Shown here piece after piece: positions 1-52,634 of a DNA stretch of 64,000 nt. This DNA comes from Candidatus Multivoraceae bacterium. Lineage in GTDB: Bacteria > Acidobacteriota > Thermoanaerobaculia > Multivoradales > Multivoraceae. The position numbers were made by a program, and so were the translations under genes. Positions within the stretch are counted from its first letter, which is position 1, and each line of letters begins with the position of its first letter. The stretch covers positions 2,413,803-2,477,802 of the forward strand of contig CBDCWR010000007.1 in assembly GCA_965223385.1 (NCBI GenBank), written 5' to 3'. The notes below the pieces were generated by a model that did not search any database, was not told the DNA's origin, and was given only the letters and a program-made list of their open reading frames with translations.

Positions 1-684
1 CTGGGCATTCCGTTCGGCAACATCCCGGGCATCAGCCGCAAGCGCTTCCGGTTCCACAACACGCGGCCGAGTCGGAGAATCCGCGAAGGGTGTCAGGCCC
101 TGGCGGTCGACGAGCACCGCAAGGCGTACGACGCCGTCCTGTGGACGAACTTCCTCGCACGCGACCCGGAGTCGGAGCGGATCGCCGACGTCGAGCGCCG
201 CGCCGAGCTCGAGCACTCCGGCATCGAGCAGCGGTGGTTCGTCGGGGCGCATTCGGACGTCGGCGGCGGCTATACCGACCGGCGCCTCGCGCTGGCGCCG
301 CTCGCCTGGATCCAGGAGCGGGCCCACCGGGCGGGCCTGCGCTTCTCGGAGCTGCTCGAGGCCAAATCGGGAGAGCACCTGAGCGCGACCCCGGTGGACT
401 CGTATGCGCGCTTCCTCAAGGGTGCCTATCGGTTTTTTCGACTCGGCGTGCGGCACCATCGCGCCGTGGGGCGCCTGCTCCAGCGGAAGACCGGGAAGAG
501 GCCGGGCTGGGTGGAGACGGTCAACGAGTCGATCGACCCGACGGTGCTCGAGCGCTGGCGGACCGACACGACCTATCGCCCGGCGAGCCTGGTGCGCTTC
601 GAGGAGCGGCGTGGTGTGCGGCTCCGCGACGAGCCGATGGACCAACCGCTCCGGATCGACAGCAACTGGGCCGACCTGAGGTGA
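1..684 (+). CDS. DUF2235-family alpha/beta hydrolase (T6SS Tle1-like phospholipase fold), 5'-truncated by the window edge
   Basis: Frame 1 is open from base 1 to the stop at 682-684. The translation carries the DUF2235 hallmark WFVGAHSDVGGGY. The overlapping ORFs at 90..722 and 394..684 are other-frame or subset calls. Confidence 0.7.
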   Translation: MGIPFGNIPGISRKRFRFHNTRPSRRIREGCQALAVDEHRKAYDAVLWTNFLARDPESERIADVERRAELEHSGIEQRWFVGAHSDVGGGYTDRRLALAPLAWIQERAHRAGLRFSELLEAKSGEHLSATPVDSYARFLKGAYRFFRLGVRHHRAVGRLLQRKTGKRPGWVETVNESIDPTVLERWRTDTTYRPASLVRFEERRGVRLRDEPMDQPLRIDSNWADLR

Positions 685-27873: not shown

Positions 27874-29568
27874 ATGAGTGCGAACCGCAGGGCCCTGACG
27901 ATCTTCCAGATCACGCCTTCGATCGACGGTGCCGACGTGTCGAGCTTCGACCAGGTCGTGCAGGCCTCCGCTCTCACCGACCCTCAGCTGCAGACGACGG
28001 AGCTCCCGGCGGGCTTCGACTTCGACGGCCGGCTGTATGTGATCGCCCCGGCCCCCGAGGAGCCGCGCTGGGGGGCGTTCCTGCGCGAGGGTTTCGGCGA
28101 CACGTTCAACCTGTCCGCCACGGCGACCAACCGCGCACTGCTCGTGATCCGTTTTCGCTACTACAACGCCGACCGCTACTTCGCGGTTGCGTTCGGCGCG
28201 GGCCGCCACCTGATGCGTCGTGACGCCTACGTGCGCTCGTTCGGGCTGAAGGCGGCGCTCAACCTGATTTACGAAGACGACGTCCTCGACGGCAGCGCGT
28301 CGAGCGATCGCGTGCGCCAGGTCGATTCGCGGACCGTCGCGGGTAACACGTTCCGGACGCGGCGCCAGGCGAACCGCGACACCACCTTCGAGCAGTTCGG
28401 CTTGGACACCGAGCGCGATCTGCTGAGCACGGTCACCGGGGAGCCGAGTGATCGGACCGAGCTGGGCTCCCGCGTCTTTGGTGCCGATCACGTCGGCGTC
28501 AATCTGCCGATCGACTTCTCCGGCCTCGTCGGCCTCTGCAAGAGGCTCTGGCGGGCGGGGCGTGCCGACGACTACGAGACGCACTTCAGCTGGATCGACA
28601 ACCTGTCGGCGATCGCGGAGCCCGCGCGCCTCGAGGCGCTGCGCTCCGCGGTGGTGCAGCAGCTGCGCGATGGTGCCGTGGGCGCCTTCGAACTGGCACC
28701 ACCGGAACTGGTCGACTTCGACGCGATCGAGACCTTCCGGATCGAGGTCGGCGCCAACGACGTCTCGGTGGCCGACCTCACTCTCAGCGCGTACCTCGCA
28801 CTGTTCGACGCTGGCGGACTCGCGGCGCTCACCTGGGACCGCATGAAGTCGCACCGTGTCGCCGCGCTGTCGGCCCAAGGTGAGCTCCTCCACAGGTGGC
28901 CCGTCTCCGACTGCCTGTTCGGCGAGCTGGACGACGACGGCGAGACCGTGCTGCTCGACGCGGCCGAGTTCTTCGCCGTCGCCGCCGACTTTCTGGCCGA
29001 CCTCGACGCGTTCGTCGCGGCGATCCCGGAGTCCGACGTCGACCTTCCCGACTCACGCATCGACGCGAACGGCCGGGAGATCAGCGAGGGGGTCTACAAC
29101 GTGGAGGCAGCGCAACACCTTCCCACGCATCTGCTGCTCGACAAGCGCACCGTCAGGGTGGCACCCAACACGAGCTCGATCGAGATCTGTGACGTGCTCA
29201 CGACGGACCGCAAGTTCGTGCACGTGAAGCGCAAGCTGGGCTCCGCGTCGCTGAGCCATCTCTTCTCGCAGGGCTACGTGTCGGGCGACCTGTTCGTGAC
29301 CAGCCACGAGTACCGCACGGCCGTTGCCGCCGAGATTGCAGCTGCCGAGGCAGACAAGGGCTCCGGGCCGATCTTCACGAACGCGCTCGACTTCCAGGCC
29401 CCCGACCCGGCTGCGATCGAAGTGGTCTACGCGGTGGTGGCCAACTGGAACGGCGACAGCGTGGTCGACCGCCTGCCGTTCTTCTCGAAGGTCAACCTGC
29501 GCCGCCACGCCACCGACCTGAGACGCCTCGGCTACGAGGTGACGTTCAAGCGCATCGACATTGCGTGA
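27874..29568 (+). CDS. DUF6119 / TIGR04141-like sporadically distributed protein (function unknown)
   Basis: ATG at 27874 has a GGGAGGTG RBS. The 564-aa product has a C-terminal region KFVHVKRKLGSASLSHLFSQGYVSGDLF that resembles, from memory, the TIGR04141 family. It abuts the left end of the low-GC island. Family assignment is tentative. Confidence 0.55.
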   Translation: MSANRRALTIFQITPSIDGADVSSFDQVVQASALTDPQLQTTELPAGFDFDGRLYVIAPAPEEPRWGAFLREGFGDTFNLSATATNRALLVIRFRYYNADRYFAVAFGAGRHLMRRDAYVRSFGLKAALNLIYEDDVLDGSASSDRVRQVDSRTVAGNTFRTRRQANRDTTFEQFGLDTERDLLSTVTGEPSDRTELGSRVFGADHVGVNLPIDFSGLVGLCKRLWRAGRADDYETHFSWIDNLSAIAEPARLEALRSAVVQQLRDGAVGAFELAPPELVDFDAIETFRIEVGANDVSVADLTLSAYLALFDAGGLAALTWDRMKSHRVAALSAQGELLHRWPVSDCLFGELDDDGETVLLDAAEFFAVAADFLADLDAFVAAIPESDVDLPDSRIDANGREISEGVYNVEAAQHLPTHLLLDKRTVRVAPNTSSIEICDVLTTDRKFVHVKRKLGSASLSHLFSQGYVSGDLFVTSHEYRTAVAAEIAAAEADKGSGPIFTNALDFQAPDPAAIEVVYAVVANWNGDSVVDRLPFFSKVNLRRHATDLRRLGYEVTFKRIDIA

Positions 29569-31660: not shown

Positions 31661-31710
31661 TGGAGCCGATGAGCGGACTTGAACCGCTGACCTGCTGATT
31701 ACGAATCAGT
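31661..31710 (-). other. tRNA-Thr(CGU)-derived 3' half (anticodon arm to CCA), probable integrase att-core remnant, not a functional tRNA
   Basis: The minus strand reads CTGATTCGTAATCAG-CAGGTC-AGCGGTTCAAGTCCGCT-CATCGGCT-CCA, with a UUCGUAA anticodon loop, T-arm, acceptor 3' strand and CCA. No matching 5' acceptor or D-arm follows. A P4-type int N-terminus starts 125 bp away. Confidence 0.55.
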
Positions 31711-31835
31711 GATCGTCTGTTTGTGGGCCTTTGCGCGTGTTTGCGAACCCGCGTTGCTGCTGAATTCTAGGGGAAGCATGGGGTGTGCTCTATGTCGCGG
31801 TTTGCGTGTCGTGGATGGTACAGTGATGGTACGGT

Positions 31836-32231
31836 ATGCGAGGGAGAATCACCAAGAAGGCTGTCGATGGATTGGCTCCGCGAATGGGTGCCGATGGTGC
31901 CCTTCGTGCTGAGCGGTTGTGGGATACGGATGTCACTGGCTTTGGGTGCCTGGTGACGAAGTCCGGGCACAAGAGCTACATCTTTCAGTACCGAACGCGG
32001 CAGCAGGCAAGCAGGACGCCCAAGCGGCTGACGATTGGGGCGCATGGCGAGCTCACCCCGGATGAAGCGCGCACCATTGCTCGAGAACTCCTGTTCAAGG
32101 TCCGCTCCGGAGAGGATCCGGCTCTTGAGTGGAGAAGGGTCAAAGGTGAGACGTTCGGAGACCTCGCGGATCACTTCATGCGCACGTACCTGCCGGCGAA
32201 GAAGCGGCCTCCGAGGGCATCCACCAGAAGT
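31836..32231 (+). pseudogene. P4-type tyrosine integrase, N-terminal (DUF4102 arm-binding) fragment truncated by IS insertion
   Basis: ITKKAVDGLAPRMGADGALRAERLWDTDVTGFGCLVTKSGHKSYIFQYR...GELTPDEARTIARELLFKVRSGEDP is a typical arm-DNA-binding domain. The ORF reads through into the IS terminal repeat at about 32231. No catalytic domain lies downstream. Confidence 0.65.
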
Positions 32232-32260
32232 GAATCGCTCCGAGTTTCCCGGAGACCTTT

Positions 32261-33495
<1,235 letters not shown>

Positions 33496-33649
33496 GACTC
33501 CGATTCTCCCAAGGAATGGAGTCTCCGGGATTCCCGGTGCGGTTCAGTAGTGATTCTGCGCCATCTCGATACCAACGTTGAGCGCATGCTTGGGAGAGTG
33601 CCGCGACACAGAGAGCTGCGTGAGTTAATCAGGACTTTCATCGAGACTG

Positions 33650-34105
33650 GTGGCGCACCTCTCGGTTGATCACCCGGCCGGGGAGGACTTCGTGAGTCTG
33701 AAAGTAGTTGAGCCGTCCGAGAATCTCCATCGCGCTGTGGCTAATGTCACAAGGAGACTCAACGAAATGGGCTACGAGGGTCCAACGCCACGCGACGCGA
33801 CTGGAGTGGTCATCGTTGGGCGCGAGGTTGTCGGTGCGTTTTGTCTCAGCGACTTCACGGCCCCGCCGGGCGCGACGAGACTGAAGTGGATGGGCTCCAC
33901 AGAAACGGCAGAACGGAACAAACTCAGGGTTGGTACCTTCATCGTCCGGCACGCCGTGGCCGAAGCTAGAGCTGATGGGTTCGAAGAGATCCTCCTCTCG
34001 GTACGAGGGACCAACGAGCGCGCCATTCGCCTATACACGAGGGAGGGCTTCCGCCTCACCGGGAAAGGCAACGAGCAAGAGCTGGAAATGCGCCGTACGC
34101 TCTAG
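33650..34105 (+). CDS. GNAT-family N-acetyltransferase
   Basis: A 151-aa product with GTNERAIRLYTREGFRLTG (GNAT motif A/B region). GTG start. Confidence 0.65.
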   Translation: MAHLSVDHPAGEDFVSLKVVEPSENLHRAVANVTRRLNEMGYEGPTPRDATGVVIVGREVVGAFCLSDFTAPPGATRLKWMGSTETAERNKLRVGTFIVRHAVAEARADGFEEILLSVRGTNERAIRLYTREGFRLTGKGNEQELEMRRTL

Positions 34106-37636: not shown

Positions 37637-37820
37637 GTTTGCGAATGCCTCCTCCGCGACTCGGGACACGTGGGGGACGCGCCGACATCGCGATTTGGTG
37701 AGGCAGCATGCTACATCATGGAGTCTCTTGAGACCAGCTGTAACCCATACAAAATGTATTGTTTGGGCGCCATGACTCAGTTTGAACCCTTCCGTGCGGG
37801 ACTCGTTCAAGAGAGCGGGA

Positions 37821-37871
37821 CACTGACTGAAAATCAGGGTGTCGGTGGTTCAAATCCGCCTCTGGGCACCA
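37821..37871 (+). other. tRNA-Phe(GAA)-like 3' half (anticodon arm to CCA), att-core remnant, not an intact tRNA
   Basis: ACTGA-CTGAAAA-TCAGG GTGTC GGTGG-TTCAAAT-CCGCC TCTGGGC-A-CCA is canonical tRNA-Phe from the anticodon loop onward. No 5' acceptor (GCCCAGA) or D-arm lies upstream. It is 185 bp from the int start codon. Confidence 0.5.
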
Positions 37872-37980
37872 GCAACTCAAGGGTTTCGAGCGACCGAAAA
37901 CACGCTGCGTCTCGTAGGTCACCGATAGGTCACCTCGACGCGTCGTTTGAGAGCCGGGGGCAGACGAGAAGGGGAGGGAC

Positions 37981-39123
37981 GTGAACGCTGAGCGACTGCA
38001 TGCGTTGGCTCTGGTGCTGAGGGAACACCTGAAAGAGCTGAACCTGCCCGCCTCACTGGCTGCACTCGAGTCCGAACTAAGTACGCTGGTCTCAAGTCCC
38101 TCCGACGAGACTGCGCAGCTTCAGGTAAGTCTGAAGCGGAACGAGCTGATCGCCGGCTTGGAGTCTTCGCTTCGGGACGAAGGTCCCTTGTTTGCCGATG
38201 GCATTCAAGAGCTTGGAGTGGATGGCCTGGTAGGACCAGGACTTGCCGGTGCGCTTCGTAGCGCGCTTGCGGGCGAGGATCTCACTCCAGCGGCGGCACA
38301 GGCGGGGGTTGAGCGGCTGCGTTCAGAGGTCGCAATGCTCGAAGGGCACCTCAAGAGCTTGGTAAATGCTCTTGAGAGTTTCCATGTTGGCCACGAGTTG
38401 CTCGGCCCTGGGGAAGCTGAACTCGCCGTCGTAATCCCACGGTCAGCCGTGAAGAACGAGGTGGGAGAGCTCGCAGATGATCTCGAGGGGCTGGACAAGA
38501 TCTTCGGCTGCCTGGCTGAGGTTGCGACTGGCCAGAGGGCCGACCTCAAGATCCGGACGATCTCCTCGTCCGATCTCACCTTCCTCCTGGAGGTGCTTCC
38601 GGAGGTTGGTGCGGCTATTGCCTTCTCGGTGCGGTGGCTGGTGCAGACGTACAAGGACGTCTTGGAGATCAAGAAGAACCGCCAAGATCTGGCGAACAAG
38701 GAGATCCCTCAGGAGGTGCTGGACGACCTCGATGCGCACATTCAGGAGCGGGTCGATGCTGCGATAGCGGATGGCGTTGAGGAACTGTTCAAGGAATTCG
38801 ACAAGCGCCGGCCGGCGGGCAGAAAGGAAGAGCTAAGGAACGAGCTCCGACGCTGGCTCGGAGAGCTGATGAAGCGCATCGACCACGGCTACCATGTCGA
38901 AGTTCGAGCTGCGCCGAGAGAGGACGGAGAGGAGGAAGAGGAGAGGGACGAGTCCGCTGAACACCTCGAGAAGATCTCCGAGCTAGCGGCTCAGACCCCC
39001 TACGTCGCCATCGCTGGGAGGCCCGTTCTCTATCTGCCGGGACCCGACGATCAAGAGGACGCTGATGGCGCCGCGGACGAAAGTCCAGACGAGCCCGACG
39101 AGAGCGAAGATTCCGAACCCTAG
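37981..39123 (+). CDS. Hypothetical protein (380 aa, predicted alpha-helical, acidic C-terminal tail), orphan island cargo
   Basis: GTG start with a GGGGAGGG RBS. No recognisable motif. The C-terminus is DEPDESEDSEP. Its stop TAG is the first triplet of a 36-bp direct repeat. Confidence 0.6.
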   Translation: MNAERLHALALVLREHLKELNLPASLAALESELSTLVSSPSDETAQLQVSLKRNELIAGLESSLRDEGPLFADGIQELGVDGLVGPGLAGALRSALAGEDLTPAAAQAGVERLRSEVAMLEGHLKSLVNALESFHVGHELLGPGEAELAVVIPRSAVKNEVGELADDLEGLDKIFGCLAEVATGQRADLKIRTISSSDLTFLLEVLPEVGAAIAFSVRWLVQTYKDVLEIKKNRQDLANKEIPQEVLDDLDAHIQERVDAAIADGVEELFKEFDKRRPAGRKEELRNELRRWLGELMKRIDHGYHVEVRAAPREDGEEEEERDESAEHLEKISELAAQTPYVAIAGRPVLYLPGPDDQEDADGAADESPDEPDESEDSEP

Positions 39124-39156
39124 ACACCGCCCGCACGATCGGCCCAAGCGACCGGG
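39121..39156. repeat. 36-bp direct repeat, copy 1 (TAGACACCGCCCGCACGATCGGCCCAAGCGACCGGG)
   Basis: 35/36 identical to copy 2 at 40427..40462. It starts at the stop codon of gene 37981..39123. Confidence 0.6.
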
Positions 39157-39448
39157 CACGTAGCTAGGCGGCATCCTCTTCTGCGAGCGAAGCCCAGAAG
39201 AAGCCTCGCGGCGCGCGCTTGATCTTGGCCAGCACCTCGACCGCGTCCCCGAGGGCCTGCTACTCGTCCGGGGTCGCGATCGCGACCCTCTGGCCGTGGC
39301 GCGGCGCCCTCGGCGACTCCGCCATGCGTTGCATCGCAGGACGACGGTGAGCGCTAGCATTGGGCTACGCAAGCGCGGCGAAAGCCGCGGCTGCTCGGGG
39401 CGCAGGCGCTTGGCCGGGGGCCAGACGAGATAAGGAGGAACCCAAACG

Positions 39449-40363
39449 ATGGTCAGTAGCCGACGACTGGCCGTGACCGTACTGATCGTCGTGACGCTGG
39501 GCCAGCCCAGTGCCGGCTGGTCCAGCGAGGCTGCGTTTCCAACGGGAAGCCGAGGAGCTTGGACGCGGAACAGCGGCGAAGAGCGTCTGAACGTCACCGA
39601 GTCTCACATTGTCCACCACCACAACGGCCTGCTCAAAGTCCGGAAGCTGCTCAGCATCGACCGGCTGCAGGCCAAGCTCCGATTCAACGGTACCGAGTCT
39701 TGGGTTGCCTTCTATGTCCAAGATGAGCATCTGTACTTCGCGGATCGGAGCTTCGAGAGAGTGTCGCCGATACCTGACGATCTCCAAGTCCTTACTCCAT
39801 TCCAAATCCCTCAGCCGTCCGCCGCTGCCGCCAGCGACATCGAGGCCGCACAGGGGCTTCTGAGGCTCATGATCCGGAATGACCAACGGCTCCGAAAGGA
39901 GCGGCGTCCGCCAGACGAGCTGCGGCGCGCAGGCAAGAGGCATGCCGAAAAACTAAAAGGGATCCTAAGAAACCAGGGCTGGATCGACATCCACAGATTC
40001 GGCCCTGAGGCAGCGATGAACGCGTTTCTGGTCGTTCAGCACAGCAATGACCTGCCGCTGATGCTCTCCGCACTGCCGCTGATCAAGAGTGATCTCGAGA
40101 ATCTCGGAGGTCGAGAGGCAGGGGACATGTTTGCGCTGCTCTTCGATCGCATAAGAGTGCGAACAGGCGAGCTTCAACGCTACGGCAGTCAGCTCAACGA
40201 AGACGCCACAGGTCCATACGTTCTCCCCTTAGAAGATCCGTGCAGCATTGACGACCTTCGCCAAGCTATCGGCCTTGAGCCTCTGCAGGAATACGTAGCG
40301 ATCGCATCGAAGGAGTTCTATGCAGGACGCCCAGTGCGCCTTCTCACCCCCTGCGAGCATTAG
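39449..40363 (+). CDS. Hypothetical secreted protein (304 aa), orphan island cargo
   Basis: A perfect AAGGAGG RBS lies 9 nt upstream of the ATG. Signal peptide-like MVSSRRLAVTVLIVVTLGQPSAG. No recognisable catalytic motif. The gene is bracketed by the 36-bp direct repeats. Confidence 0.6.
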   Translation: MVSSRRLAVTVLIVVTLGQPSAGWSSEAAFPTGSRGAWTRNSGEERLNVTESHIVHHHNGLLKVRKLLSIDRLQAKLRFNGTESWVAFYVQDEHLYFADRSFERVSPIPDDLQVLTPFQIPQPSAAAASDIEAAQGLLRLMIRNDQRLRKERRPPDELRRAGKRHAEKLKGILRNQGWIDIHRFGPEAAMNAFLVVQHSNDLPLMLSALPLIKSDLENLGGREAGDMFALLFDRIRVRTGELQRYGSQLNEDATGPYVLPLEDPCSIDDLRQAIGLEPLQEYVAIASKEFYAGRPVRLLTPCEH

Positions 40364-40426
40364 CTCTGGAGAATACTCGGTGGCCACCTAGATCGCCCCT
40401 TATCGGCGAGCCTCCAAGACCGCCTG

Positions 40427-40462
40427 TAGACACCGCCCGCACCATCGGCCCAAGCGACCGGG
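40427..40462. repeat. 36-bp direct repeat, copy 2 (TAGACACCGCCCGCACCATCGGCCCAAGCGACCGGG)
   Basis: One mismatch to copy 1. It lies immediately upstream of the ATG at 40469. Confidence 0.6.
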
Positions 40463-40468
40463 GGTGCG

Positions 40469-41083
40469 ATGGCGGCTCACAACTCGAGGTTCCGGGTGCA
40501 GTCCTACACGGGCGACTCGGAGTGGCTCCAGCCGGTGGAGGTTTTCCTCTTCCGCGGCTACCAGAAGGTGGGGCAGACGCGGCACCTCGGCCCGAATCGC
40601 TACTGCCCGACCACCCTGGCCACGCTCCAGACGAACGCGGACCGGCTCTTCCTCTCGCCTGAGACGCGCACGCTGGCAGCCTCTGAAGGCTGCCCGAGCT
40701 CGCCTCTGCTCCTCTGGGTCGAGAGCGCCTTTGACTCAGCTCTGAGCGGCTTCAGCGGCGCTGTGGTGCCTCTTCTCGAGCAGGGCGTGGGCGACGACGA
40801 CCCGAGGCTTGCGCTGGCGCTCAGGAACGTGTCAGGGCGCCTGAAGACAGCCTCCGAGGAGGAGAAGCAGGCCGTCATGGACTGGCTTGAGGACTCAGGC
40901 ATGCGCGAGCAGGTGCCCGAGACGTTGAAGACCTCCCCGAGGTGCTTTTGGGCGTCGCTGGCGGTGGCCGAAGAGGCCGCCACTAGAGAGCGCTACCCCG
41001 TCGCCTCGGGATCCCAGTCGCGAGCCCAGCCACCATTTCGGATCTCCTTGGCTAGTTCGAGGATCTCCGGGTGCTTTGCGTAG
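40469..41083 (+). CDS. Hypothetical protein (204 aa), uncertain
   Basis: ATG follows a GGGGG stretch. The central part is protein-like (EEEKQAVMDWLEDSGMREQVPETLK). The 3' 90 nt overlap the convergent TPR gene, so the true end is uncertain. Confidence 0.35.
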   Translation: MAAHNSRFRVQSYTGDSEWLQPVEVFLFRGYQKVGQTRHLGPNRYCPTTLATLQTNADRLFLSPETRTLAASEGCPSSPLLLWVESAFDSALSGFSGAVVPLLEQGVGDDDPRLALALRNVSGRLKTASEEEKQAVMDWLEDSGMREQVPETLKTSPRCFWASLAVAEEAATRERYPVASGSQSRAQPPFRISLASSRISGCFA

Positions 41084-41511
41084 GGGCAAGGTGGATCCAA
41101 GCTCGCAAGCGCACGCTCCGGCTGGTTTAGCTCAGCGAGAACCCGGGCGCGTCCGAAGTGCGCTTCGTGGTCACCTCCCAGGTCGACGGCACGCTCGAAG
41201 TAGCTGAGCGCCAGCTCCAGCTGCTCGTCCCAGACGTCGTACCAGTACCCGAGCTCGTTGTGTGGCTCGGGGTCGTCGGGCGCAATTTCGAGAGCACGCT
41301 CGTAGCTTTGACGCGCATCCTCCAGTTCCCGACGAGGGTCATCGTCCCCCAACAGGATCAGATGGCCACGCAGGAGCCAGAGCTCCATGGACCTCGGGAA
41401 GGCGTCCAGCGCCTGATCCGCTACCGCAACCAGGGCACCTGGGACGTCTCCCTCTTCAGGTATCTGCTGGCGGATCCGCTCCAACCAGGCTTCCTCGGAT
41501 ACTGGAGCCAC
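40993..41511 (-). CDS. TPR-repeat protein
   Basis: A 172-aa product with TPR-like helical repeats (ARQSYERALEIAPDDPEPHNELGYWY, ALSYFERAVDLGGDHEAHFGRARVL). Confidence 0.55.
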   Translation of the reverse strand: MAPVSEEAWLERIRQQIPEEGDVPGALVAVADQALDAFPRSMELWLLRGHLILLGDDDPRRELEDARQSYERALEIAPDDPEPHNELGYWYDVWDEQLELALSYFERAVDLGGDHEAHFGRARVLAELNQPERALASLDPPCPYAKHPEILELAKEIRNGGWARDWDPEATG

Positions 41512-41787
41512 CCGTTTCTCCCTTCAGTTCCTGATACCTAATGCAGCAACACTGCCAGTCCACCGGATCCGACGGCCGGAAATCCGGAACGCTCCTGTCG
41601 CAGCAGCGAACCGCCGCTCGCCTCCGGGACGAACGTCAGAGACAGGCTCGAACGCGGCCGTCTCTGAGCTGACGTGCTCCCCGTTTCGTACCACGGACTT
41701 CTGGACATTCGGGCAAGTTGGCTACCTGCGGCTGCGGTGCGCGGGTCGAGTCCAGAAACACACCAAAGGCGTCAGGATTGGTTCACG

Positions 41788-42042
41788 ATGAGAGCAATTG
41801 CCGGAGGCCTTCTGCTTGCAGCATGGATCGCGCTCCCGACCGTGGTGCAGTCTCAGTCCGTCTTCTGTGACAACTTCGCTCTCGCCCCGTTGCATCCCCA
41901 ACCAGCAATTCAGGGGAGCTCGCTCTCCGTGAGGGTCTACGGAAGTTGGCCGACGACCAACGTCCCTGATCTCGTCGGAGCATCTGTCACCGGGAACACG
42001 ATCCGAGTGCAACTGGAAGGGCCTACACACTCGCAATCCTGA
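41788..42042 (+). CDS. Small hypothetical secreted protein (84 aa)
   Basis: Signal peptide MRAIAGGLLLAAWIALPTVVQS. No similarity recognised. Low confidence. Confidence 0.3.
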   Translation: MRAIAGGLLLAAWIALPTVVQSQSVFCDNFALAPLHPQPAIQGSSLSVRVYGSWPTTNVPDLVGASVTGNTIRVQLEGPTHSQS

Positions 42043-42343
42043 TTTCACTTGTCGCGACTCTTGGTGTCCATCATCTCCGCTAGCGACGCCACGGATCGGA
42101 GGCTGATCTCGGACCGGCCTGCAGGAGCGGGGGCGCAGCTTCGAGGGAGTCTTTCCGACGGAACGGGGGAGCGCTCATCGCCATCGCGAGACGGGCACCC
42201 GAGTTCGTCCGGCGTCAGGCATACTTCACCCGCGAAGCGATCTCGGCGCATACGTCGCCGTGTTGGACGAGGGCCGCGAAGCGACGCGGCTCATCCAGGG
42301 GAGGCGTCTCCTGCAACGGGTCGCTCCTGCTTGAGTTGACGAA

Positions 42344-43660
42344 ATGAGAGTCCTCCTCCTCTTGGCTGTGTTTCTCGGCTCGCTGTCGTGTGCGACCCGG
42401 GTCCCGGTTGCCGAGCAGCTCGGTCTTGCCGTACCGACGCGCGTGTTCCTCATCTCCATCGACACGCTGCGCGCCGACCACCTCGGCTCCTACGGGTACG
42501 AGCGGGACACGAGCCCTCACCTCGACGTGTTCCGTCAAGAAGCCGTGCTGTTTCGCGAGGTCATCTCGCACGCTCCGTCGACCCTTCCCGCCCATGCGTC
42601 GATTCTGACCTCGCTGCTGCCGCAACATCATCTGGCCTCCGTCGCCGAGGACACGGCGCTGGCGGACGAGGCGCTGACGCTTGCAGAGGTGTTTTCTGCA
42701 GCCGGGTTCAAGACCGTCGCCGTGACGGGTGGCGGCCAGCTCGACCCCGCCTACGGTGTGGACCAGGGGTTCGACACGTACCGGATTCCCAAGAACAACC
42801 AGCAGTTCCGGACGGTTGCGCGGCAGACATCCAACTGGCTCCGGAAAAACCGAGACCGCGCGTTCCTGTTCCTGCACACCTACCAGGTACATGCGCCCTA
42901 CGTGTCACCTTCGGAGCTCCTCGACGTTCTGGGCAACGACTACACCGGCAGCTTGCCCGACCAGATCGACACCTCGATCCTCGACGCCATCAACGGAGGC
43001 GAGCTTGCAATCGACGACGAGGACCTCGCGCACATCGTCCGCACATACGACGCCGACATCCGGCGCATGGACCAGCAGCTCGCGCGGTTCTTCGGGTGGC
43101 TGAAGGGTGAGGGCCTCTACGACGACAGCCTCATCGTGATCACGTCGGACCATGGCGAAGAGTTCGGGGAACGAGGTCAGGTCGGCCGACACTCCTACAC
43201 GCTCCACGATGAGCTCCTTCACGTGCCCCTGCTCATCCGCTTCCCCGACGGGGCTTTTGGTGGCTCCGAGGTCTCGTCCCAGGTGCGCGGCATCGACATC
43301 GCACCGACGATCCTCGAGGCCCTTCGTCTTCCTGTGCCGGAGGAGTTCCAGGGGACATCACTTCTGGGACATCTCGAGCAGACGAGACCCTCACTTCCTG
43401 CTGTGAGCAGTCTGGACAAGTTCACGGCGCGGATGTGGTCGCTCCGAGACGGCGGTTGGAAGCTCTATGGCCCAGCGCTTTACGACCTGGCCAACGACCC
43501 CGGCGAGCTGGAGGACGTGGCGATGACGCAGCGCGAACGGTACGAGGACCTCCGCCGCACGCTCCGCGAGCAGGTTCAGGCTCGGGAGCCGCTGCCCCTG
43601 AATCAGGTGACCCCCGACGAACAGCTCATTGAGCAGCTCAAGGCGCTCGGCTACCTGTAG
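42344..43660 (+). CDS. Sulfatase-like hydrolase/transferase (alkaline-phosphatase superfamily), secreted
   Basis: A 438-aa product with a signal peptide and LISIDTLRADHLGSYGY (sulfatase N-terminal metal-site region) plus ITSDHGEEFGERG (sulfatase signature II-like). Confidence 0.75.
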   Translation: MRVLLLLAVFLGSLSCATRVPVAEQLGLAVPTRVFLISIDTLRADHLGSYGYERDTSPHLDVFRQEAVLFREVISHAPSTLPAHASILTSLLPQHHLASVAEDTALADEALTLAEVFSAAGFKTVAVTGGGQLDPAYGVDQGFDTYRIPKNNQQFRTVARQTSNWLRKNRDRAFLFLHTYQVHAPYVSPSELLDVLGNDYTGSLPDQIDTSILDAINGGELAIDDEDLAHIVRTYDADIRRMDQQLARFFGWLKGEGLYDDSLIVITSDHGEEFGERGQVGRHSYTLHDELLHVPLLIRFPDGAFGGSEVSSQVRGIDIAPTILEALRLPVPEEFQGTSLLGHLEQTRPSLPAVSSLDKFTARMWSLRDGGWKLYGPALYDLANDPGELEDVAMTQRERYEDLRRTLREQVQAREPLPLNQVTPDEQLIEQLKALGYL

Positions 43661-43756
43661 TACACCCGAAGCTCCTTTGGCTGGGCCTCTGCCGGGCAGC
43701 TCCGGAGGCTGAGCTAGGGAACTGGGCGGTCGCTCCGTGGCACGACGGCCTCGACT

Positions 43757-44197
43757 TCAGGTCGCCGGCTCGCCCTCTTCCACCTGGGCGCGGGCTCGAT
43801 GTACGGTCACCACGTTACGGCCCGCCTCGCGTCGGTAGTCGATCGAGTCGACCCACTGCCGCACGAGGTGAACGCCGAGGCCGCCGGGCCGACGCTCTTC
43901 CACGGGTGCGTCGAGCTCGGTCGGTGGTTCGAGGCAGAGCGGGTCGAAGGCCTCCGCGCCGTCCGAGACCACGAGACCCCACCGGACCTCGTCCAGCATG
44001 AAGGTCACCTCGATCTCGTCGCGATCACTCAAGCCGCCGTGCCGGATCACGTTCGACACGAGCTCGTCGAGAACCAGCTCCATGGCGAAGCGGTCCTGGG
44101 CCACGAGGCCCTGCTCGGCGCAGAGCCGGTCGAGCGTGGCCTCGAATCGGCCGAGAACCGGTGGAGCCGCCGGAACGGTCACGCGGAAGCTGTCCAT
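43757..44197 (-). CDS. Anti-sigma regulatory factor, RsbW-like Ser/Thr kinase (HATPase_c)
   Basis: A 146-aa product with ELVSNVIRHG...RRPGGLGVHLVRQWVDSIDY, GHKL-ATPase motifs typical of RsbW/SpoIIAB. Confidence 0.75.
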   Translation of the reverse strand: MDSFRVTVPAAPPVLGRFEATLDRLCAEQGLVAQDRFAMELVLDELVSNVIRHGGLSDRDEIEVTFMLDEVRWGLVVSDGAEAFDPLCLEPPTELDAPVEERRPGGLGVHLVRQWVDSIDYRREAGRNVVTVHRARAQVEEGEPAT

Positions 44198-44207
44198 CGG
44201 ACCGAGA

Positions 44208-44564
44208 CTAACGGGAGGCGATCGCGCGAAGCGCTTCCTCGGCCCGCTGGCACTCCGACTGGATGTCGAGGATCCTGGTGAAGCCCGAGACGTTCAGCAC
44301 GTCCAGCACGCCGCCCTGGGGCCCGAAGAAGGCCACGTTGCCTCCCTCGAGGCGCGCTCTCTTGACCAGCCACAGAAACACACGCAGGCCGGCGCTGCTC
44401 AGGAACTCCAGGCCCGAGAGGTCGAGCGCCATCACGTTGTGCCCCTGGCGCAGCAGTGCTTCCAGCTCGGTCTCCGCCCGCTTCGACGTGTCGGTGTCGA
44501 GACGTCCTCCGAGCTCGAGCACCAGCCCTTCTTCGGCCTGGAGTGTGTTCATCTTCAATGACAT
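44208..44564 (-). CDS. STAS-domain anti-sigma-factor antagonist
   Basis: A 118-aa product from MSLKMN, with DLSGLEFLSSAGLRVFL, the SpoIIAA/RsbV motif with the phosphorylatable Ser. The rest of the 316-aa ORF is spurious. Confidence 0.75.
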   Translation of the reverse strand: MSLKMNTLQAEEGLVLELGGRLDTDTSKRAETELEALLRQGHNVMALDLSGLEFLSSAGLRVFLWLVKRARLEGGNVAFFGPQGGVLDVLNVSGFTRILDIQSECQRAEEALRAIASR

Positions 44565-45772
44565 GGCAGCTCCTCTCGATCTTCGTGACGGTCTTTCCTT
44601 GCGAGCCGTTCCACGGCCATGAGGGTGATGTCGTCCGACTGCGGCACGCCGCTCGAGTGGCGGTCGACCGCCTCGGAGATGTGATCGATCACCTCGCGGA
44701 CGTTGCGCGCCGGCTCGCCGAGCGTGGCGTGGAGACGATCCACGCCGAAGGCCTCTCCTGCCCCGTCGAAGGCCTCGCAGATGCCGTCGGTGACGAGGAC
44801 GAGGGAGTCGCCCACCTCCAGCTCGACCTCGCCGGTCTCGAACGTGAGCCCTGGGAGCATGCCCACGGCGGGCCCTGTCGTCTGCAGCTGGGCGCGGAGT
44901 GAACCGTCCCGTGCGCGCAGGAGGCCCGCATCCTGGCCGGCGTTCGCGTAGCGGAGGCGGTCGCTCTCCGGCTCGAGCAGGAGCATGAAGGCAGTCGCGA
45001 ACATCGACAGCTCGTCGTGGTGCACGGCGATGTAGTCGCTGGTGCGCCGGATCGCGTCGAAGGGATCGCTGCCGGTCTTGTGCGCTTCGTGGGCGAAGAG
45101 TCGGATCAGGCTGCGCGTGAGCGCCATGAAGAACGCGGCCCCGAACCCCTTGCCACACACGTCACCCATGACCAGAACCACCGACCCGTCGGAGAGAGCG
45201 AAGCTGTCGTAGAAGTCTCCTGCCACCTGCTTGGCGGGCCGGAAGAAGACCTCGCAGCGCCATCCGGGAGCTCCCCCGACGTCCTTCGGAAGGAACTGGC
45301 TCTGCATCCTGCGCGCCGCGTCGAGCTCACTGTCGACCGTCTGCGCATACCCCTCGAGAAGCTCGAGATGGTGCTTCTCGATACGTTGCATGCGGCGTCG
45401 CTCCAGCCCGTTCCTGACGCGGGCGAGGAGCAGCTCGGGATCAAGCGGCAGGCTGAGGACGTCTTCCGCACCGAGGTCGAGCGCCCGCACCAGAGCCGCC
45501 CGATCGGAGTGATCCGCCACCATCACGACGGGAACGTCGCGCGTTGCGGGCTCCCGCTTGAGCGCAGCCAGGGTCTCGCCCCCACCCCAGCCGATCGAAG
45601 GCAAGGCGAGGAGGACCAGGTCGGCCTCGGAGCTGGCGCACGCTTCGAGCGTCTGCTCGGCCGAGGTCACCTGCACGACCTCCCCGAAGGCCTCGGCGAG
45701 CGCCTCCAGCCCCTCGTTGGAGCTGGACAGGTCGGCTGCAACCAGAACCGACTCTCGTGTGCCAACGATCAT
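44555..45772 (-). CDS. Response-regulator receiver + PP2C (SpoIIE/RsbU-type) phosphatase
   Basis: A 405-aa product with an N-terminal REC (DLVLLALPSIGWGG, phospho-Asp region) and C-terminal PP2C motifs (GDFYDSF, LVMGDVCGKG, TDGICEAFD). Confidence 0.8.
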   Translation of the reverse strand: MIVGTRESVLVAADLSSSNEGLEALAEAFGEVVQVTSAEQTLEACASSEADLVLLALPSIGWGGGETLAALKREPATRDVPVVMVADHSDRAALVRALDLGAEDVLSLPLDPELLLARVRNGLERRRMQRIEKHHLELLEGYAQTVDSELDAARRMQSQFLPKDVGGAPGWRCEVFFRPAKQVAGDFYDSFALSDGSVVLVMGDVCGKGFGAAFFMALTRSLIRLFAHEAHKTGSDPFDAIRRTSDYIAVHHDELSMFATAFMLLLEPESDRLRYANAGQDAGLLRARDGSLRAQLQTTGPAVGMLPGLTFETGEVELEVGDSLVLVTDGICEAFDGAGEAFGVDRLHATLGEPARNVREVIDHISEAVDRHSSGVPQSDDITLMAVERLARKDRHEDREELPCH

Positions 45773-46174
45773 CCCGTCATTCCCCGACTGCCTCGCTTCG
45801 ATCGACCCGCGCCACGACGCGTCGCCGACGTGCCTGGCTTCCGCCAGCTCTGCCCCGGTTGCGTGCGCCGAACGGTCCGATGTGTCTCCGATGACCGGGA
45901 GCGGCCTTCGGAGAGCCCAGCTTGCCGAGCCGTGAAGGGAATGAAACTCAGACGGCGATGAGGGAGGCCGTAGGAATCGGCAGACAGGCCCTGTCGGAAG
46001 AGGACGACACCTGCTCTGATGCGGGCGAGGTCATCGCCCCGGAGTCGGAGCGACCTCCGCTGCTCACTCTCGCTCCAGTATCCTGCTTGCGAGGAGGGAG
46101 CCCATGTGTGGCTCAGCAAAAGGACCCCGCTCGCCGGCCACGGAACAGTTTCGACCCGGCGGACCTGGGTGCGT

Positions 46175-46753
46175 GTGAAGCGGCTCTTCCTGGCACTCTT
46201 TCCGCCGCCCGACCTCGCACGGAGAGTCGTCCGTCGCCTCGAGCCGGCGCGCGCAGGCCTGCCGCGCGCGAGCTGGGTGCCGGCCGAGCGATTGCACCTG
46301 ACCCTGCACTTCTTCGGGGATCGGACGCAGAGCCGAGCCGAGGAGATTGCGACCGCCCTCTCCGCGTCGGTCGCGGAGGTTGGCGCGATGCGACTCACCC
46401 TCCAGACCGTCGGCGCGTTTGGTGGGCGCAGGCCCCGCGTGATCTGGGTGGGAGTGGCTCCGTTCCGAGAGAGCGAAGGTGCCTGGGCGGAGCTCTCACT
46501 GCGGGTGCGGAGCGCGCTCCAGGCCGCGGAGGAGCCGGTGGACCCGCGGCCGCTTCGCCCTCACCTGACGGTGGCGCGCTGCAGAGGCTCGTGGACCCGG
46601 AGCCACGTCCGTGAGCTCCGCGAACGGGCGGCCGCCGTCGACGGGTGCATGTGGGAGGTCTCTTTCGCCTGCCTCACGACGAGTGAGCGACGACCCGATG
46701 GCCCCCGGTACCACGTGGCCTGGAAGCTGCCTCTCGCCGAGGCCCGAGGCTGA
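46175..46753 (+). CDS. thpR: RNA 2',3'-cyclic phosphodiesterase (ThpR/LigT family 2H phosphoesterase)
   Basis: Two H-x-T-x motifs (LHLTLHFFGD and PHLTVARC). Probable GTG start at 46175 (VKRLFLALFPP). The in-frame ORF begins at 46019. Confidence 0.7.
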   Translation: MKRLFLALFPPPDLARRVVRRLEPARAGLPRASWVPAERLHLTLHFFGDRTQSRAEEIATALSASVAEVGAMRLTLQTVGAFGGRRPRVIWVGVAPFRESEGAWAELSLRVRSALQAAEEPVDPRPLRPHLTVARCRGSWTRSHVRELRERAAAVDGCMWEVSFACLTTSERRPDGPRYHVAWKLPLAEARG

Positions 46754-46847
46754 CACGCGGAGGCCAAGGACAAAACGAAAGACGGCGCCCGGATCACTCC
46801 GGGCGCCGCCGCAACCAAGCTCCGCGGAGAGCGGAGCCTCACGGTCT

Positions 46848-48089
46848 CTAGTTGCCGCAGTTTCCGTCCGCGTCGCACAGAACGATCGCGGTCGGACCCG
46901 AACCGCCGGAGGCCGGCGGCGCGGCAAACGGGTCCTGCATGTGGATGTTGAACCCGGCCTGCTCCGCACCGGGCGGAAGCACGATGATCGTGGCGAAGTT
47001 CCAGATGTCCGTGGTGGGGTCGTTGCTCTCGTTGACACCGTTCCAGAACTCCTCCTCACCCGGAATCGGCTGAAGCGGAGTCGTACTGAAACCGCCGGGG
47101 CCGATCTCGTCCACGTAGATCACGTAGGGAGCCCCCGGGGTCAGCCCGTGGAGACGGAACGTGCCGTCGCCACGGCCCTGGCCGGAGAACGCCTGGTTGA
47201 AGCCCGTGATCGCCGACACCGCGTCGAAGAAGGGCTCGTTGATGTTGCGCGCGATCACGTTGACACCGTTGATCGGCTTGCCGTTCGGGTCGAACACCTT
47301 GCCGATGATCTTCGAGCGCTGGCGGCGATAGCCCCGCGCCGGGTAGAGCTCGGAGAAGTAGGTGATGTCGTCCATTCCCGGCGAGTCCGTCCCGAGGAAG
47401 ATCCCGGCGGAGTTCCCGAAGTAGAACGGGTACATCGTGGCGACCGAGGTCAGGTCGTTGATGCTGGTGACCGGGAACAGATCCGCCTGCGGGCCGGTGC
47501 CGTCGCCGATCAGCCAGAAGCCGTTCGTCTGAGTGTGGGCGAGGTTCGAGTAGTGCCCGAACTCGTGCACGCTCACGTCGAGGGCGGCGCGGAGGGTGTC
47601 CGGCGACACCGGGTTGTCGGAGAATGCCGCGCCGTTGAGGACCGCGAGACCCTCGATCAGCGTACAGCCGATCGCCCAGTCGGGGCCCGCGAAGCCGAGG
47701 ACTCCCGAGCCGGGTCCGAACAGGAAGTCGGTGACCGAGCCGTCCTCGTCGAAGACGATCTCGGAGAGGCCGTTCGGGCCGGCCGCGGTGAAGATCGCCA
47801 GCACTTCGGCGAGCCCGTGGTCGGTGGGCAGTGCGCCCGCGTTCTTGTACGTGGCGCCCGCGGTGGCGATGTTCTGCCACGCACCAAACGCAGAGTCGAC
47901 GAGGGCCACGGCGGCCGCATTGTCGAGCGTTCCGAGGTTGCCGATGTCCGGGTTGTAGGGAATGTTCTTCGGCGCCCAGCGATACGGGACGTTGTTGAAG
48001 CAGTTGATCAACGGGCCCGCGGCGAGTGCAACCTGGCTTCCGACCAGGAGGAGAACGAGTGCGAGAAGGGTCGTCTTGCGAAGGTTCAT
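46848..48089 (-). CDS. Secreted metzincin-like zinc metalloprotease (HEFGHYSNLAH)
   Basis: A 413-aa product with a signal peptide and the zinc motif VHEFGHYSNLAH (HExxHxxNxxH). Confidence 0.65.
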   Translation of the reverse strand: MNLRKTTLLALVLLLVGSQVALAAGPLINCFNNVPYRWAPKNIPYNPDIGNLGTLDNAAAVALVDSAFGAWQNIATAGATYKNAGALPTDHGLAEVLAIFTAAGPNGLSEIVFDEDGSVTDFLFGPGSGVLGFAGPDWAIGCTLIEGLAVLNGAAFSDNPVSPDTLRAALDVSVHEFGHYSNLAHTQTNGFWLIGDGTGPQADLFPVTSINDLTSVATMYPFYFGNSAGIFLGTDSPGMDDITYFSELYPARGYRRQRSKIIGKVFDPNGKPINGVNVIARNINEPFFDAVSAITGFNQAFSGQGRGDGTFRLHGLTPGAPYVIYVDEIGPGGFSTTPLQPIPGEEEFWNGVNESNDPTTDIWNFATIIVLPPGAEQAGFNIHMQDPFAAPPASGGSGPTAIVLCDADGNCGN

Positions 48090-48099
48090 CTCATGCCTC

Positions 48100-48705
48100 C
48101 TAGCGGTTCACCGACCGACGGATCTCGGCGGTCAGGACGTCGACGGGAAGGCGGATGCCGGAAGCAGAGGCCGACGACTCCATGCCCTCGAAGAGACCGG
48201 CGTTGCCCGCCTCGTTGATGGCGACGCGACGGCCGGCGATCTCACGGATGGCGAAAAGGCCCTGGCCGAGGCCGACGAAGTTCGAGAGACCGGCAACGCT
48301 GTTGGCCGTCTTGAAGACGATGTACTCGCCGCCCTCACGAACCTGGGGCAGATGCGCGAACATGCCAATGCGATGCACCTTGGCGAAGGCAGGGCTCTCG
48401 GCGCGGAACGGCGCGAGCATGGTCATCTCCATGGTGCGCGTTTCGATGCCGCCACCGCGGCGCTGCAGGGCTCCGCTGCCCTTGAAGCTGTCGGTCACGG
48501 CGAACGTGACGACGTGGACGGGGAGCGAGACTCCCTGCACGTCGAGCTGCGACTCGCGGACCTCGAGAACTTTGCCTTGAATGATGGCGTCGGCGTTTCC
48601 GGCGAGCGCGTCCAGGTTCATCGACTTGACGAACGTGGCACCCGTCGGGAGCGCGAGGAAAAGACAGGCGACCGCAAGCGCGGCGAACCATCTCCTCTGG
48701 TTCAT
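48100..48705 (-). CDS. Hypothetical secreted protein
   Basis: About 201 aa from MNQRRWFAALAVACLFLALPTGA (signal peptide). It is immediately upstream of, and co-directional with, the metalloprotease. Confidence 0.5.
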   Translation of the reverse strand: MNQRRWFAALAVACLFLALPTGATFVKSMNLDALAGNADAIIQGKVLEVRESQLDVQGVSLPVHVVTFAVTDSFKGSGALQRRGGGIETRTMEMTMLAPFRAESPAFAKVHRIGMFAHLPQVREGGEYIVFKTANSVAGLSNFVGLGQGLFAIREIAGRRVAINEAGNAGLFEGMESSASASGIRLPVDVLTAEIRRSVNR

Positions 48706-49273
48706 GAACACTCTCCTTGTGAGGGATGCGGCTCGGGCAGCCAACCTCCCCCGGTTAGCTCAGCGCGATGCCCGTTGCCTCGCCGCGCTCGGGAACGTCT
48801 CCCGAAACAACGGCCAGGGCGCGTCCACGGACATCGCTCCATTCAAGCTGGCTTTGAGAGCCAGGGTAGTCGATGTGCGCCCACTTTTCGAGAGGTCGCT
48901 CGGCGACGATTTGTGTCGGTTGGACACATTTCGGGAGTTGGTGCCGGGATGCCGGGACGGGGCGCCGTCAAGGGCGAGCTCGAGCGCCCCCCGGGGACGC
49001 GCGCGGCGCTTCGACGCGAGCGCCGCGGATCTCCCTGAACCAGCTGGAGCTTCGCCCCAGCACCGCTGGTGCACAGGGAGAGCGACGGACCGCGGGCCCG
49101 GCGCGGGTCGCGGCCCGAGGAGCCTCCGCACGGCCTCGTGACAAAAAGTCGACCTCTGAAAAGTTGCCGCAGGATTTCTTGACAACATTCGGGCCGGCAA
49201 GCGGAGAGCCGTGCCCGGCGGACCCGCCGGACCATCCGATGCGACCTCACCGCGCGAACCTCCACGTCAGACG

Positions 49274-50263
49274 ATGAACGCTCGACAACCCACCATTGCC
49301 GTCGTGGGAGCCGGCCTCAGCGGCCTCACGTGTGCCCGCGCACTGTCGCGTCGCGGCGTGGTCGTGCGCGTCTTCGACAAGGCGCGAGGCCCGGGCGGCC
49401 GCATGGCGACGCGTCGCCAGGGGGAGGCGCAGTTCGATCATGGCGCGCAGTACTTCACGGTGCGCCACCCGTCGTTTCGTCAGCAGGTCGACCGCTGGAT
49501 CGCGTCCGGTGTCGCCGCGGCGTGGAACGGCGTGGTCGCCGTGCTCGAGCGAGGGGCCGTCTCGCCGACGGCGAACGCGACCGAGCGCTTCGTGGGTGTG
49601 CCCCGCATGAGTGCGATCACGCGCGCGCAGGCGGCTGGGCTGGACCTGGTGCTCGAGGCGCGCGTCGTGGAGCTGCGCCGGGGCGAGCGCGGCTGGAGCT
49701 TGCGCACCGAAGCGGGCGACGAGGGGCCGTTCGACGAGGTCGTGCTCACGGTTCCCGCACCGCAGGCTGTGGGGCTTCTGGCTGTCGCCCCGTCGCTCGA
49801 GGCGCGGGCTCGCGCCGTCGACATCGCTCCGTGCTGGGCCGCGATGGTCGAGCTGGCGACGCCTCTCGACGTTCCGTTCGACGGCGCCTTCGTCCACCGC
49901 TCGGGCCTCTCATGGATCGCCCGCGACTCCAGCAAGCCGGGCCGTCCTCCGGGGGAGCGGTGGGTGCTGCACGCGGCCCCGGGGTGGTCGAGGCAGCGGC
50001 TGCAGCTCGAGCGGGATCAGGCTCTCCCCCTGCTCCTCGAAGAGCTCGCGAGTGCTCTCGGGCGCCCCCTGCCGACGGTCTCACACGCTGCAGCCCACCG
50101 CTGGCGCTTCGCGCTGCCGGAGGAGCCGCTCGACGAAGGTCTGCTGCACGCGCCCGAGCGCGGCATCACCGTGTGTGGCGACTGGTGTGCGGGTGCGCGG
50201 GTGGAGGGCGCCTACCTGAGCGGTGTGGCGGCGGCGGAGCAGCTCCTCGCACGCCTCGCTTGA
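49274..50263 (+). CDS. FAD/NAD(P)-binding oxidoreductase (renalase/amine-oxidase-like)
   Basis: TIAVVGAGLSGLTCARAL Rossmann dinucleotide motif at the N-terminus. About 329 aa. Confidence 0.7.
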   Translation: MNARQPTIAVVGAGLSGLTCARALSRRGVVVRVFDKARGPGGRMATRRQGEAQFDHGAQYFTVRHPSFRQQVDRWIASGVAAAWNGVVAVLERGAVSPTANATERFVGVPRMSAITRAQAAGLDLVLEARVVELRRGERGWSLRTEAGDEGPFDEVVLTVPAPQAVGLLAVAPSLEARARAVDIAPCWAAMVELATPLDVPFDGAFVHRSGLSWIARDSSKPGRPPGERWVLHAAPGWSRQRLQLERDQALPLLLEELASALGRPLPTVSHAAAHRWRFALPEEPLDEGLLHAPERGITVCGDWCAGARVEGAYLSGVAAAEQLLARLA

Positions 50264-50284
50264 AGCCGCAGCGCGCCCGCACGC

Positions 50285-50917: not shown

Positions 50918-51125
50918 GTCGGACCTCCGATCTCTCGGCGCTTCCGAGACGGTGCGGAGGTCCATCCACCGTTGCCTCGACGGTGCGCGCGAAAGGAAAG
51001 AAACTGAGCGTGTTGGCCGTTGGTACGCCGCAGGCAGGCCGACGTTGCCTGTGACGAGCGCGCCCGTGACGGCTGGGAGGCGACGTGGGACCGGTGGGGG
51101 TCCTCGCGCGACCGGCGGTCGCGCC

Positions 51126-52493: not shown

Positions 52494-52634
52494 CTCATTT
52501 CACGACAAATGGAGTCGGCCTCCGTCATGCGGGGCCCGGACACACTCTCTCAGAGCCGGAGGGTGGTGGGGTGGGTGTCGATAGACTCGGCTTTCGTCGT
52601 GCACCCGAGATCGCAGCGCGACGGAGGGGGAAGA

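Follow-up and report, generated by a model that had tools for sequence, protein, structure and literature searches.

A tRNA-Phe(GAA) 3' fragment beside an intact P4-type integrase is very likely the displaced end of a tRNA gene at an integrative-element junction in Acidobacteriota

A 64,000-nucleotide stretch of the genome of Candidatus Multivoraceae bacterium (Acidobacteriota; hereafter the window) contains a 49-nt block that, judged from its sequence, is very likely the 3' part of a tRNA-Phe(GAA) gene displaced at the integrase-proximal junction (attR) of a small integrative element. The fragment is an ordinary tRNA-integration scar of a well-known kind, and the understanding of tRNA-targeted integration is unchanged by it. 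It pins down one border of a mobile element in an Acidobacteriota chromosome exactly, which is useful for island annotation, and it provides the target specificity of a previously undescribed integrase, int1: tRNA-Phe, with the crossover presumably in the anticodon loop. The coordinates of the fragment and of the features around it are collected in Table 1.

The fragment comprises the anticodon stem-loop, variable loop, T arm, 3' acceptor strand and CCA, and reads CTGA-CTGAAAA-TCAGG-GTGTC-GGTGG-TTCAAAT-CCGCC-TCTGGGC-A-CCA on the forward strand. Its last 45 nt, CTGAAAATCAGGGTGTCGGTGGTTCAAATCCGCCTCTGGGCACCA, have a single match in the window (37827-37871, forward strand) and none in 100 shuffles. 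When one genome of each GTDB species was scanned, a single exact match to this 45-nt sequence came back, and it lies within an intact 76-nt tRNA-Phe(GAA) gene of an Acidobacteria MAG (QQVD01000061.1; locus L001, 7609-7684). By BLASTN, window 37823-37871 is identical at 49 of 49 positions to nucleotides 28-76 of this tRNA, and the L001 locus and the window show no similarity outside the block. Identity begins at the second base of the anticodon stem, tRNA nucleotide 28, and ends at the CCA. A preliminary description of this DNA had reported a canonical tRNA-Phe 3' half at 37821-37871; the perfect match to a genuine tRNA-Phe(GAA) confirms the identification and the right-hand end, and moves the start two nucleotides inward, to 37823.

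Nothing that could complete a tRNA gene precedes the fragment. ARAGORN calls no tRNA at the site, and the Rfam tRNA model scores 16.7 bits against a gathering threshold of 29 (E=2.2), with mismatched acceptor pairs and no D arm, so an intact tRNA here is rejected; neither program returned a call with a valid 5' half. The 186 nt upstream align to the tRNA 5' part with a score of 8, where shuffles give 6.9±1.2 and 275 of 1000 reach 8, so that the resemblance is due to chance. The preliminary description was therefore right that no acceptor stem or D-arm can be formed upstream, and wrong to see a D-loop relic in ACTCAGTT, which belongs to sequence that scores no better than shuffles. A tRNA 5' half is missing from the whole 64-kb window. 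The fragment thus lacks the full cloverleaf, scoring above model thresholds, of a functional tRNA-Phe gene. It has the near-identity to the 3' part of a genuine tRNA, acceptor 3' strand included, by which islander-type scars are recognised, and it extends from the anticodon stem-loop to the 3' end as in the anticodon-centred attP class.

Table 1. Features of the window that bear on the tRNA-Phe fragment and its surroundings
Feature	Position	Strand	Details
Displaced tRNA-Thr(CGT) 3' part, second fragment	31661..31709	-	Anticodon stem to CCA; Rfam tRNA 17.8 bits, 5' half unmatched
P-arm tandem repeat of defunct int2'	31814..31835	+	GATGGTACAGT/GATGGTACGGT; 11-nt period, 1 mismatch
int2', N-terminal part of second P4-type integrase, IS3-cut	31836..32230	+	Arm-DNA-bind_3, 53.9 bits
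IS3-family insertion sequence inside int2'	32231..33546	-	TIRs 32231-32256 and 33521-33546; HTH_Tnp_1 and rve ORFs
GNAT acetyltransferase-like ORF	33650..34105	+	Pfam Acetyltransf_1, 26.7 bits
Toprim-type primase-like replication protein, ORF of 603 aa	34174..35985	-	Weak Pfam Toprim; PHROGs 6088, 6444, 47, 239; TIGR01391 dnaG
AlpA-like/excisionase-family small DNA-binding protein, 83 aa	35879..36130	-	TIGR01764, 32.4 bits; phrog_66
int1, intact P4-type tyrosine integrase, 404 aa	36422..37636	-	Pfam Arm-DNA-bind_3, Phage_int_M, Phage_integrase; phrog_1; NCBIfam PRK09692
int1 P arm (int1 start codon to core)	37637..37822	+	Imperfect 11-nt-phased repeat GGGACACGTGG/GGGACGCGCCG at 37663-37681
Displaced tRNA-Phe(GAA) 3' fragment	37823..37871	+	tRNA nt 28-76; core and tRNA-identity block of the att site
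Anticodon loop CTGAAAA within CTGA/TCAG stem	37827..37833	+	Presumed crossover (overlap) region between presumed inverted core-type binding sites
Strain-specific lower-GC DNA right of the fragment	37872..41667	.	ORFs 37981-39123, DUF6624 39449-40363, TPR 40993-41511
Tandem direct repeat TAGGTCACC-GA-TAGGTCACC	37915..37934	+	11-nt period; 44 nt after CCA

The integrase gene next to the fragment is intact. All of its Pfam domains exceed their cut-offs and the catalytic residues R242, K267, H330, R333, H356 and Y365 are present, which supplies the arm, central and catalytic domains and the R-K-H-R-H-Y set of a P4-type (Arm-DNA-bind_3/DUF4102) integrase. Its start codon lies 186 nt from the fragment, on the opposite strand, and so provides the adjacent integrase expected of an Islander-type island. 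The nearest integrases are only ~45% identical to int1, and named Pseudomonas P4-type integrases share only ~35% protein identity with it. Downstream, the primase-like ORF has its likely start at the ATG at 35898 and finds homologues among the relatives' loci in L026 and L065. The GNAT-like ORF finds none there and may belong either to the cargo of the int1 element or to junction DNA. These four genes (int, excisionase-like, primase and GNAT) are the only ones recognised in the element, which is truncated, and its other ORFs have no Pfam, PHROG or NCBIfam match. Searches of the same three collections recognised no capsid-redirection, packaging or helper-interference gene in it.

Is a tRNA fragment in this position a habit of the family? 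Comparison was made with 80 metagenomic loci that encode int1 relatives, 71 of which include enough upstream sequence. A structural scan finds a tRNA 3' part, from anticodon stem-loop to CCA, 146-229 nt upstream of the integrase gene and on the opposite strand in 41 of the 71, with 14 anticodon types represented and Phe-GAA occurring four times. Run on both strands of the window, the same scan returns two fragments only, each adjoining an integrase gene. Six of the loci have an intact tRNA within reach (three Arg-ACG and one each of Met-CAT, Pro-GGG and Thr-CGT), always 3-8 kb past the int stop codon and on the opposite strand. These six complete elements measure 4.7-9.5 kb and carry, 188-262 nt upstream of the int start, a 45-50-nt exact repeat that runs from tRNA nucleotide 28..32 to the 3' end; the identity between attL and attR starts at nucleotides 28-32 in every one. 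Because the same layout is found in 41/71 loci and in all six complete relatives, the fragment can be taken as the standard attR of this integrase clade, and because the repeat starts in the anticodon stem, the clade belongs to the anticodon-centred attP class. The P4-like arrangement, in which the crossover falls in the T-loop or 3' end, the repeat is ~17-20 bp long and int sits beside the intact tRNA, is found neither in the window nor in any of the six.

AlpA-like genes lie downstream of int in 15 relatives, and many relatives have no recognisable primase. The preliminary description had held that the fragment, together with an int-alpA-primase module, defines an integrative element, and both the presence of the module and the family-wide layout bear this out. 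Viral contigs contain eleven relatives of the integrase and no exact match to the fragment. Among the metagenomic loci, L079 (Ga0111539_10000001, 1.04 Mb) has a tRNA-Phe(GAA) fragment 150 nt upstream of int, at ~9800-10000, with no intact tRNA in the 10 kb that follow int; either the island is much larger or this is a further orphan junction. In L061 (9768-9842, reverse strand) the DNA 5' of a tRNA-Thr fragment beside int mimics a tRNA 5' half well enough to score 34 bits against the Rfam threshold of 29, with an odd D arm; this may be a pseudo-tRNA that arose at the junction, or the likeness may be accidental.

The arms of the att sites show a second regularity. Each of the six complete relatives has a P arm, the stretch from int to the fragment, that contains a tandem direct repeat of 11-nt period; the motif of this repeat recurs in the P' arm, still within the element, at 25-80 nt from the CCA of the intact tRNA. 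Tandem 11-12-nt repeats with at most one mismatch are present in 22 of 41 P arms and in about none of the shuffles; such phased repeats are predicted to be the arm sites of the integrase. The flank outside the element also has a tandem 11-12-nt repeat in 9 of 37 relatives, again with about none in shuffles, and seven of the nine motifs differ from the P-arm motif of their own locus. Since these seven are unlike their P-arm motif, the repeats in the outside flanks indicate what would be tandem arrays of unlike elements at one tRNA. The resulting rule for the clade, a fragment of the 3' two-thirds of a tRNA ~150-230 nt upstream of int on the opposite strand, with 11-nt-phased tandem repeats in both arms, lets att sites and tandem arrays be read from short metagenomic contigs. 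Individual loci can be named. In L013 (~4350-4440) the flank after the fragment CCA holds two copies of GGGGACCACTG, a motif typical of the L003/L004 elements, and an arm repeat of a different element stands in the outside flank of L003 (~9650-9670), L020, L023, L024, L009 and L036 as well.

The window site departs from the complete relatives in its arms. The tandem repeat in the int1 P arm is weak (8/11), with further copies of CGGGAC at 37797 and 37816. On the other side of the fragment stands the repeat TAGGTCACC-GA-TAGGTCACC, found at this one place in the window and in no shuffle, and its position and phasing agree with the P' arms of the six complete relatives. Its motif is absent from the int1 P arm. 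Similar motifs occur in the P arms of L077 (TAGGTCAC) and of the Phe-specific loci L052, L062 and L069 (GGGTCACAC), and the repeat is a candidate arm-type site in the P' arm of another element of this family, one older than the int1 element. A tandem arm-type repeat other than that of int1 thus stands right of the fragment, which suggests that the fragment site is a hybrid junction of a tandem array, in which the attR of the int1 element would have come to adjoin the P' arm of an older element. What follows the fragment thus looks like the P' arm of an older, third element rather than plain chromosome.

The window as a whole has a GC content of 67%, and a lower-GC island of 60-64% occupies ~29.6-43 kb; right of the fragment the value is 60-64% vs 68-70% in the backbone. 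The genes of the strain-specific stretch to the right have no homologues in the 80 relatives' loci, and the stretch is presumed to be the remnant of an older element with no integrase left. Both flanks of the fragment are low in GC and strain-specific, and the right flank is not conserved chromosome; like the weakness of the int1 P-arm repeat, this counts against the attR reading. Could the site then be an attP that never recombined, in an int1 element or a composite island of ~29.6-41.7 kb that entered the chromosome in some other way and could recombine with tRNA-Phe? Low-GC strain-specific DNA on each side of the fragment, a P'-arm-like tandem repeat where an attP would have one and the lack of an attL in the window would all fit. 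An unrecombined attP, however, should have one arm-type motif on both sides of the core, as the P and P' motifs are alike in all six complete relatives, and the two sides of the window site do not share theirs. Nor do the right-flank genes have homologues beside any of the 80 related integrases, and the island borders show no sign of an alternative integration mechanism. An unrecombined attP is accordingly improbable, and the hybrid junction is retained as the reading of the fragment site.

If the fragment is an attR, an attL should accompany it. By analogy with the relatives, an intact tRNA-Phe is expected on the forward strand at ~28-33 kb. The 64-kb window has no intact tRNA-Phe, no second Phe core and no matching arm motif, and it holds neither partner cores for its other tRNA fragment nor partners for any of its three tandem motifs. 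The cognate intact tRNA in the same orientation that should bracket an island on its replicon is therefore missing within the 64-kb window. Because this partner is missing nearby, the int1 element is probably stuck: stranded without one end, it would probably be incapable of precise excision. This matches the earlier expectation that excision depends on a matching core elsewhere, as the window contains none.

The second fragment, the 3' part of a tRNA-Thr(CGT), belongs to a mirror-image remnant that takes up the place where the intact tRNA-Phe is expected. It occurs once only in the window, was recovered by the structural scan and faces the other way from the tRNA-Phe fragment. The integrase gene beside it, int2', has 28% protein identity to int1 and is cut by an IS3-family element. 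Its probable continuation, 41 codons at 33547-33669, ends in a stop codon, and neither Pfam nor BLAST confirms this segment as integrase. To the right of the int2' reading frame, which apparently ends at ~33670, come the GNAT-like ORF and, after it, the primase gene, 3' end first. The earlier proposal that the int1 element is probably the more recent of the two is reasonable, the other integrase (31836-32230) being truncated and IS3-interrupted. The IS3 element has an ALIL frameshift pseudoknot (108 bits). The sister strain has a copy that is 99.9% identical, at a different site and flanked by a clean 4-bp duplication, ATAG; the 4-mers that flank the window copy match at 3 of 4 positions.

Two integrase-proximal junctions are thus turned towards each other, both lacking an intact tRNA in the window. 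Their attL ends must have been removed or relocated by deletion or rearrangement. Recombination between int1 and int2' is rejected as the cause of the junction, as the proteins are only 28% identical, and the IS3 element is unlikely to be the breakpoint of a rearrangement, with integrase-like coding sequence apparently on both of its sides and flanks that match at 3/4. ARAGORN makes a tRNA-Thr(cgt) call of 96 nt at 40607-40702 (reverse strand), considered as a partner for the tRNA-Thr fragment. The call is rejected as a false positive, since Rfam does not support it even at E<=10, an ORF encloses it and it has no sequence in common with the fragment. A tRNA-Cys call of 82 nt at 8640-8721 (reverse strand) is likewise without Rfam support and looks like a false positive in GC-rich coding DNA. 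A single chromosomal inversion or translocation between two integrated elements in different tRNA genes might, though this is unlikely, have produced both orphan junctions, with the tRNA-Thr fragment and int2' pointing right and int1 and the tRNA-Phe fragment pointing left. Were it true, the reciprocal junction elsewhere would be a hybrid element flanked by intact genes for tRNA-Phe and tRNA-Thr(CGT) that face one another, with tandem GGGAC(A/G)CG after the tRNA-Phe and tandem GATGGTAC(A/G)GT after the tRNA-Thr. An intact int1 next to an orphan core could give rise to further large rearrangements with a distant tRNA-Phe, or offer a landing pad for Phe-specific elements.

Comparison with a sister strain places these remnants in variable DNA. 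A contig of that strain (L094/L095; ENA ERZ25072999 ctg315800) matches window 41667-52788 at 98% identity before diverging fully, and this synteny places the right-hand limit of the variable region at 41667. Past the boundary the sister strain carries ORFs of CdiI type, an Rhs/YD-shell protein of 1364 aa and, as mobile DNA, IS3, IS110 and a further rve transposase. Its first 13 kb from the common backbone boundary are free of tRNA genes, a point against the attR reading. The locus is a plasticity zone that differs between strains. Nothing is learned from an Acidobacteriota MAG whose GDH is 89% identical, as its synteny stops right after the GDH gene. Directly left of the low-GC island, 27874-29568 (forward strand) encodes a full-length DUF6119 protein (412 bits) with no cluster partner at >=90% identity in the protein collection; this region may be accessory or variable DNA.

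The element may once have sat in this genome's own tRNA-Phe; the fragment may also derive from an element or a donor and not from the host, the exact 45-nt match being in one scanned species genome only. Taken further, the island with its tRNA fragments could have been imported as one foreign block from a donor with decayed elements, and the fragments would then never have been host tRNA genes. A uniformly lower GC content over 29.6-41.7 kb, the lack of the region in the 98% identical sister strain, the occurrence of the exact tRNA-Phe 3' sequence in just one other species, a different Acidobacteria MAG, and the lack of either intact tRNA nearby would all agree with this. The identity of the fragment would be unaffected, since it would still be a displaced att fragment with the events merely moved to another genome, and no border features of import were found; wholesale import is very improbable. 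A decayed or 5'-truncated tRNA-Phe pseudogene unrelated to integration, or one part of a split or intron-containing functional tRNA, would account for a 3' part that is perfectly tRNA-like, and can nevertheless be dismissed almost entirely, as identity ends exactly at the anticodon stem as in the att sites of 41 relatives, the distance and orientation to the integrase are typical of the family, decay would leave scattered mismatches and not a 49/49 block beside unrelated sequence, and the window holds no 5' half for a split tRNA.

A displaced tRNA-Phe end at an attR, the preferred reading, can be put into a model that leans on the anatomy of the relatives. The attP of the element would contain a tRNA copy that starts at the anticodon stem and ends with the CCA. 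The P4-type integrase would bind the inverted halves of the anticodon stem (CTGA/TCAG) as its core sites, while its N-terminal arm-binding domain would contact the tandem repeats of both arms, P and P', which are phased at 11 nt. Strand exchange would then take place inside the 7-nt anticodon loop. At the far end (attL) the tRNA copy of the element would restore the gene, and the former 3' part of the gene would come to lie on the strand opposite int, ~190 nt upstream of it. The AlpA-like protein would direct excision, and the primase-like protein would replicate the excised circle. The int1 element would subsequently have lost one end through deletion or rearrangement, and precise excision would not be expected without its attL.

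How does this element compare with known systems? P4-family integrases target tRNA genes, and in P4-like satellites genes for an AlpA-type regulator and a primase accompany the integrase. In its Arm-DNA-bind_3/DUF4102, central and catalytic domains, int1 has the architecture of the integrases of phage P4, CP4-57 and ICEMlSymR7A. The gene order int, alpA-like, primase in the window and the small size of the complete relatives (4.7-9.5 kb) also recall P4-like and PICI-like satellites; no helper-exploitation genes are recognised in the int1 element, which is truncated, and many relatives are without a recognisable primase. P4 and ICEMlSymR7A duplicate ~17-20 bp at the tRNA 3' end and keep int beside the intact tRNA, whereas in the int1 clade the repeat takes up 45-50 nt from the anticodon stem and int adjoins the displaced fragment. 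Phage HP1 is an example of the anticodon-centred attP class to which this points (Williams 2002 sublocation I). The tRNA-targeted island principle, the anticodon-centred attP class (Islander 'A') and tandem arrays have all been described (PMC4383910; bioRxiv 10.1101/2020.11.02.365908). Islander-type islands have a tyrosine integrase and a tRNA copy that restores the gene, and the displaced 3' fragment marks the island end (PMC4383910). The window departs from the Islander rule in that no cognate intact tRNA is present in it and one orphan fragment faces a second, from tRNA-Thr. It agrees with Islander class 'A' in the place where tRNA identity begins: the window fragment starts at tRNA nucleotide 28, in the manner of the 45-50-nt repeats of the six complete relatives.
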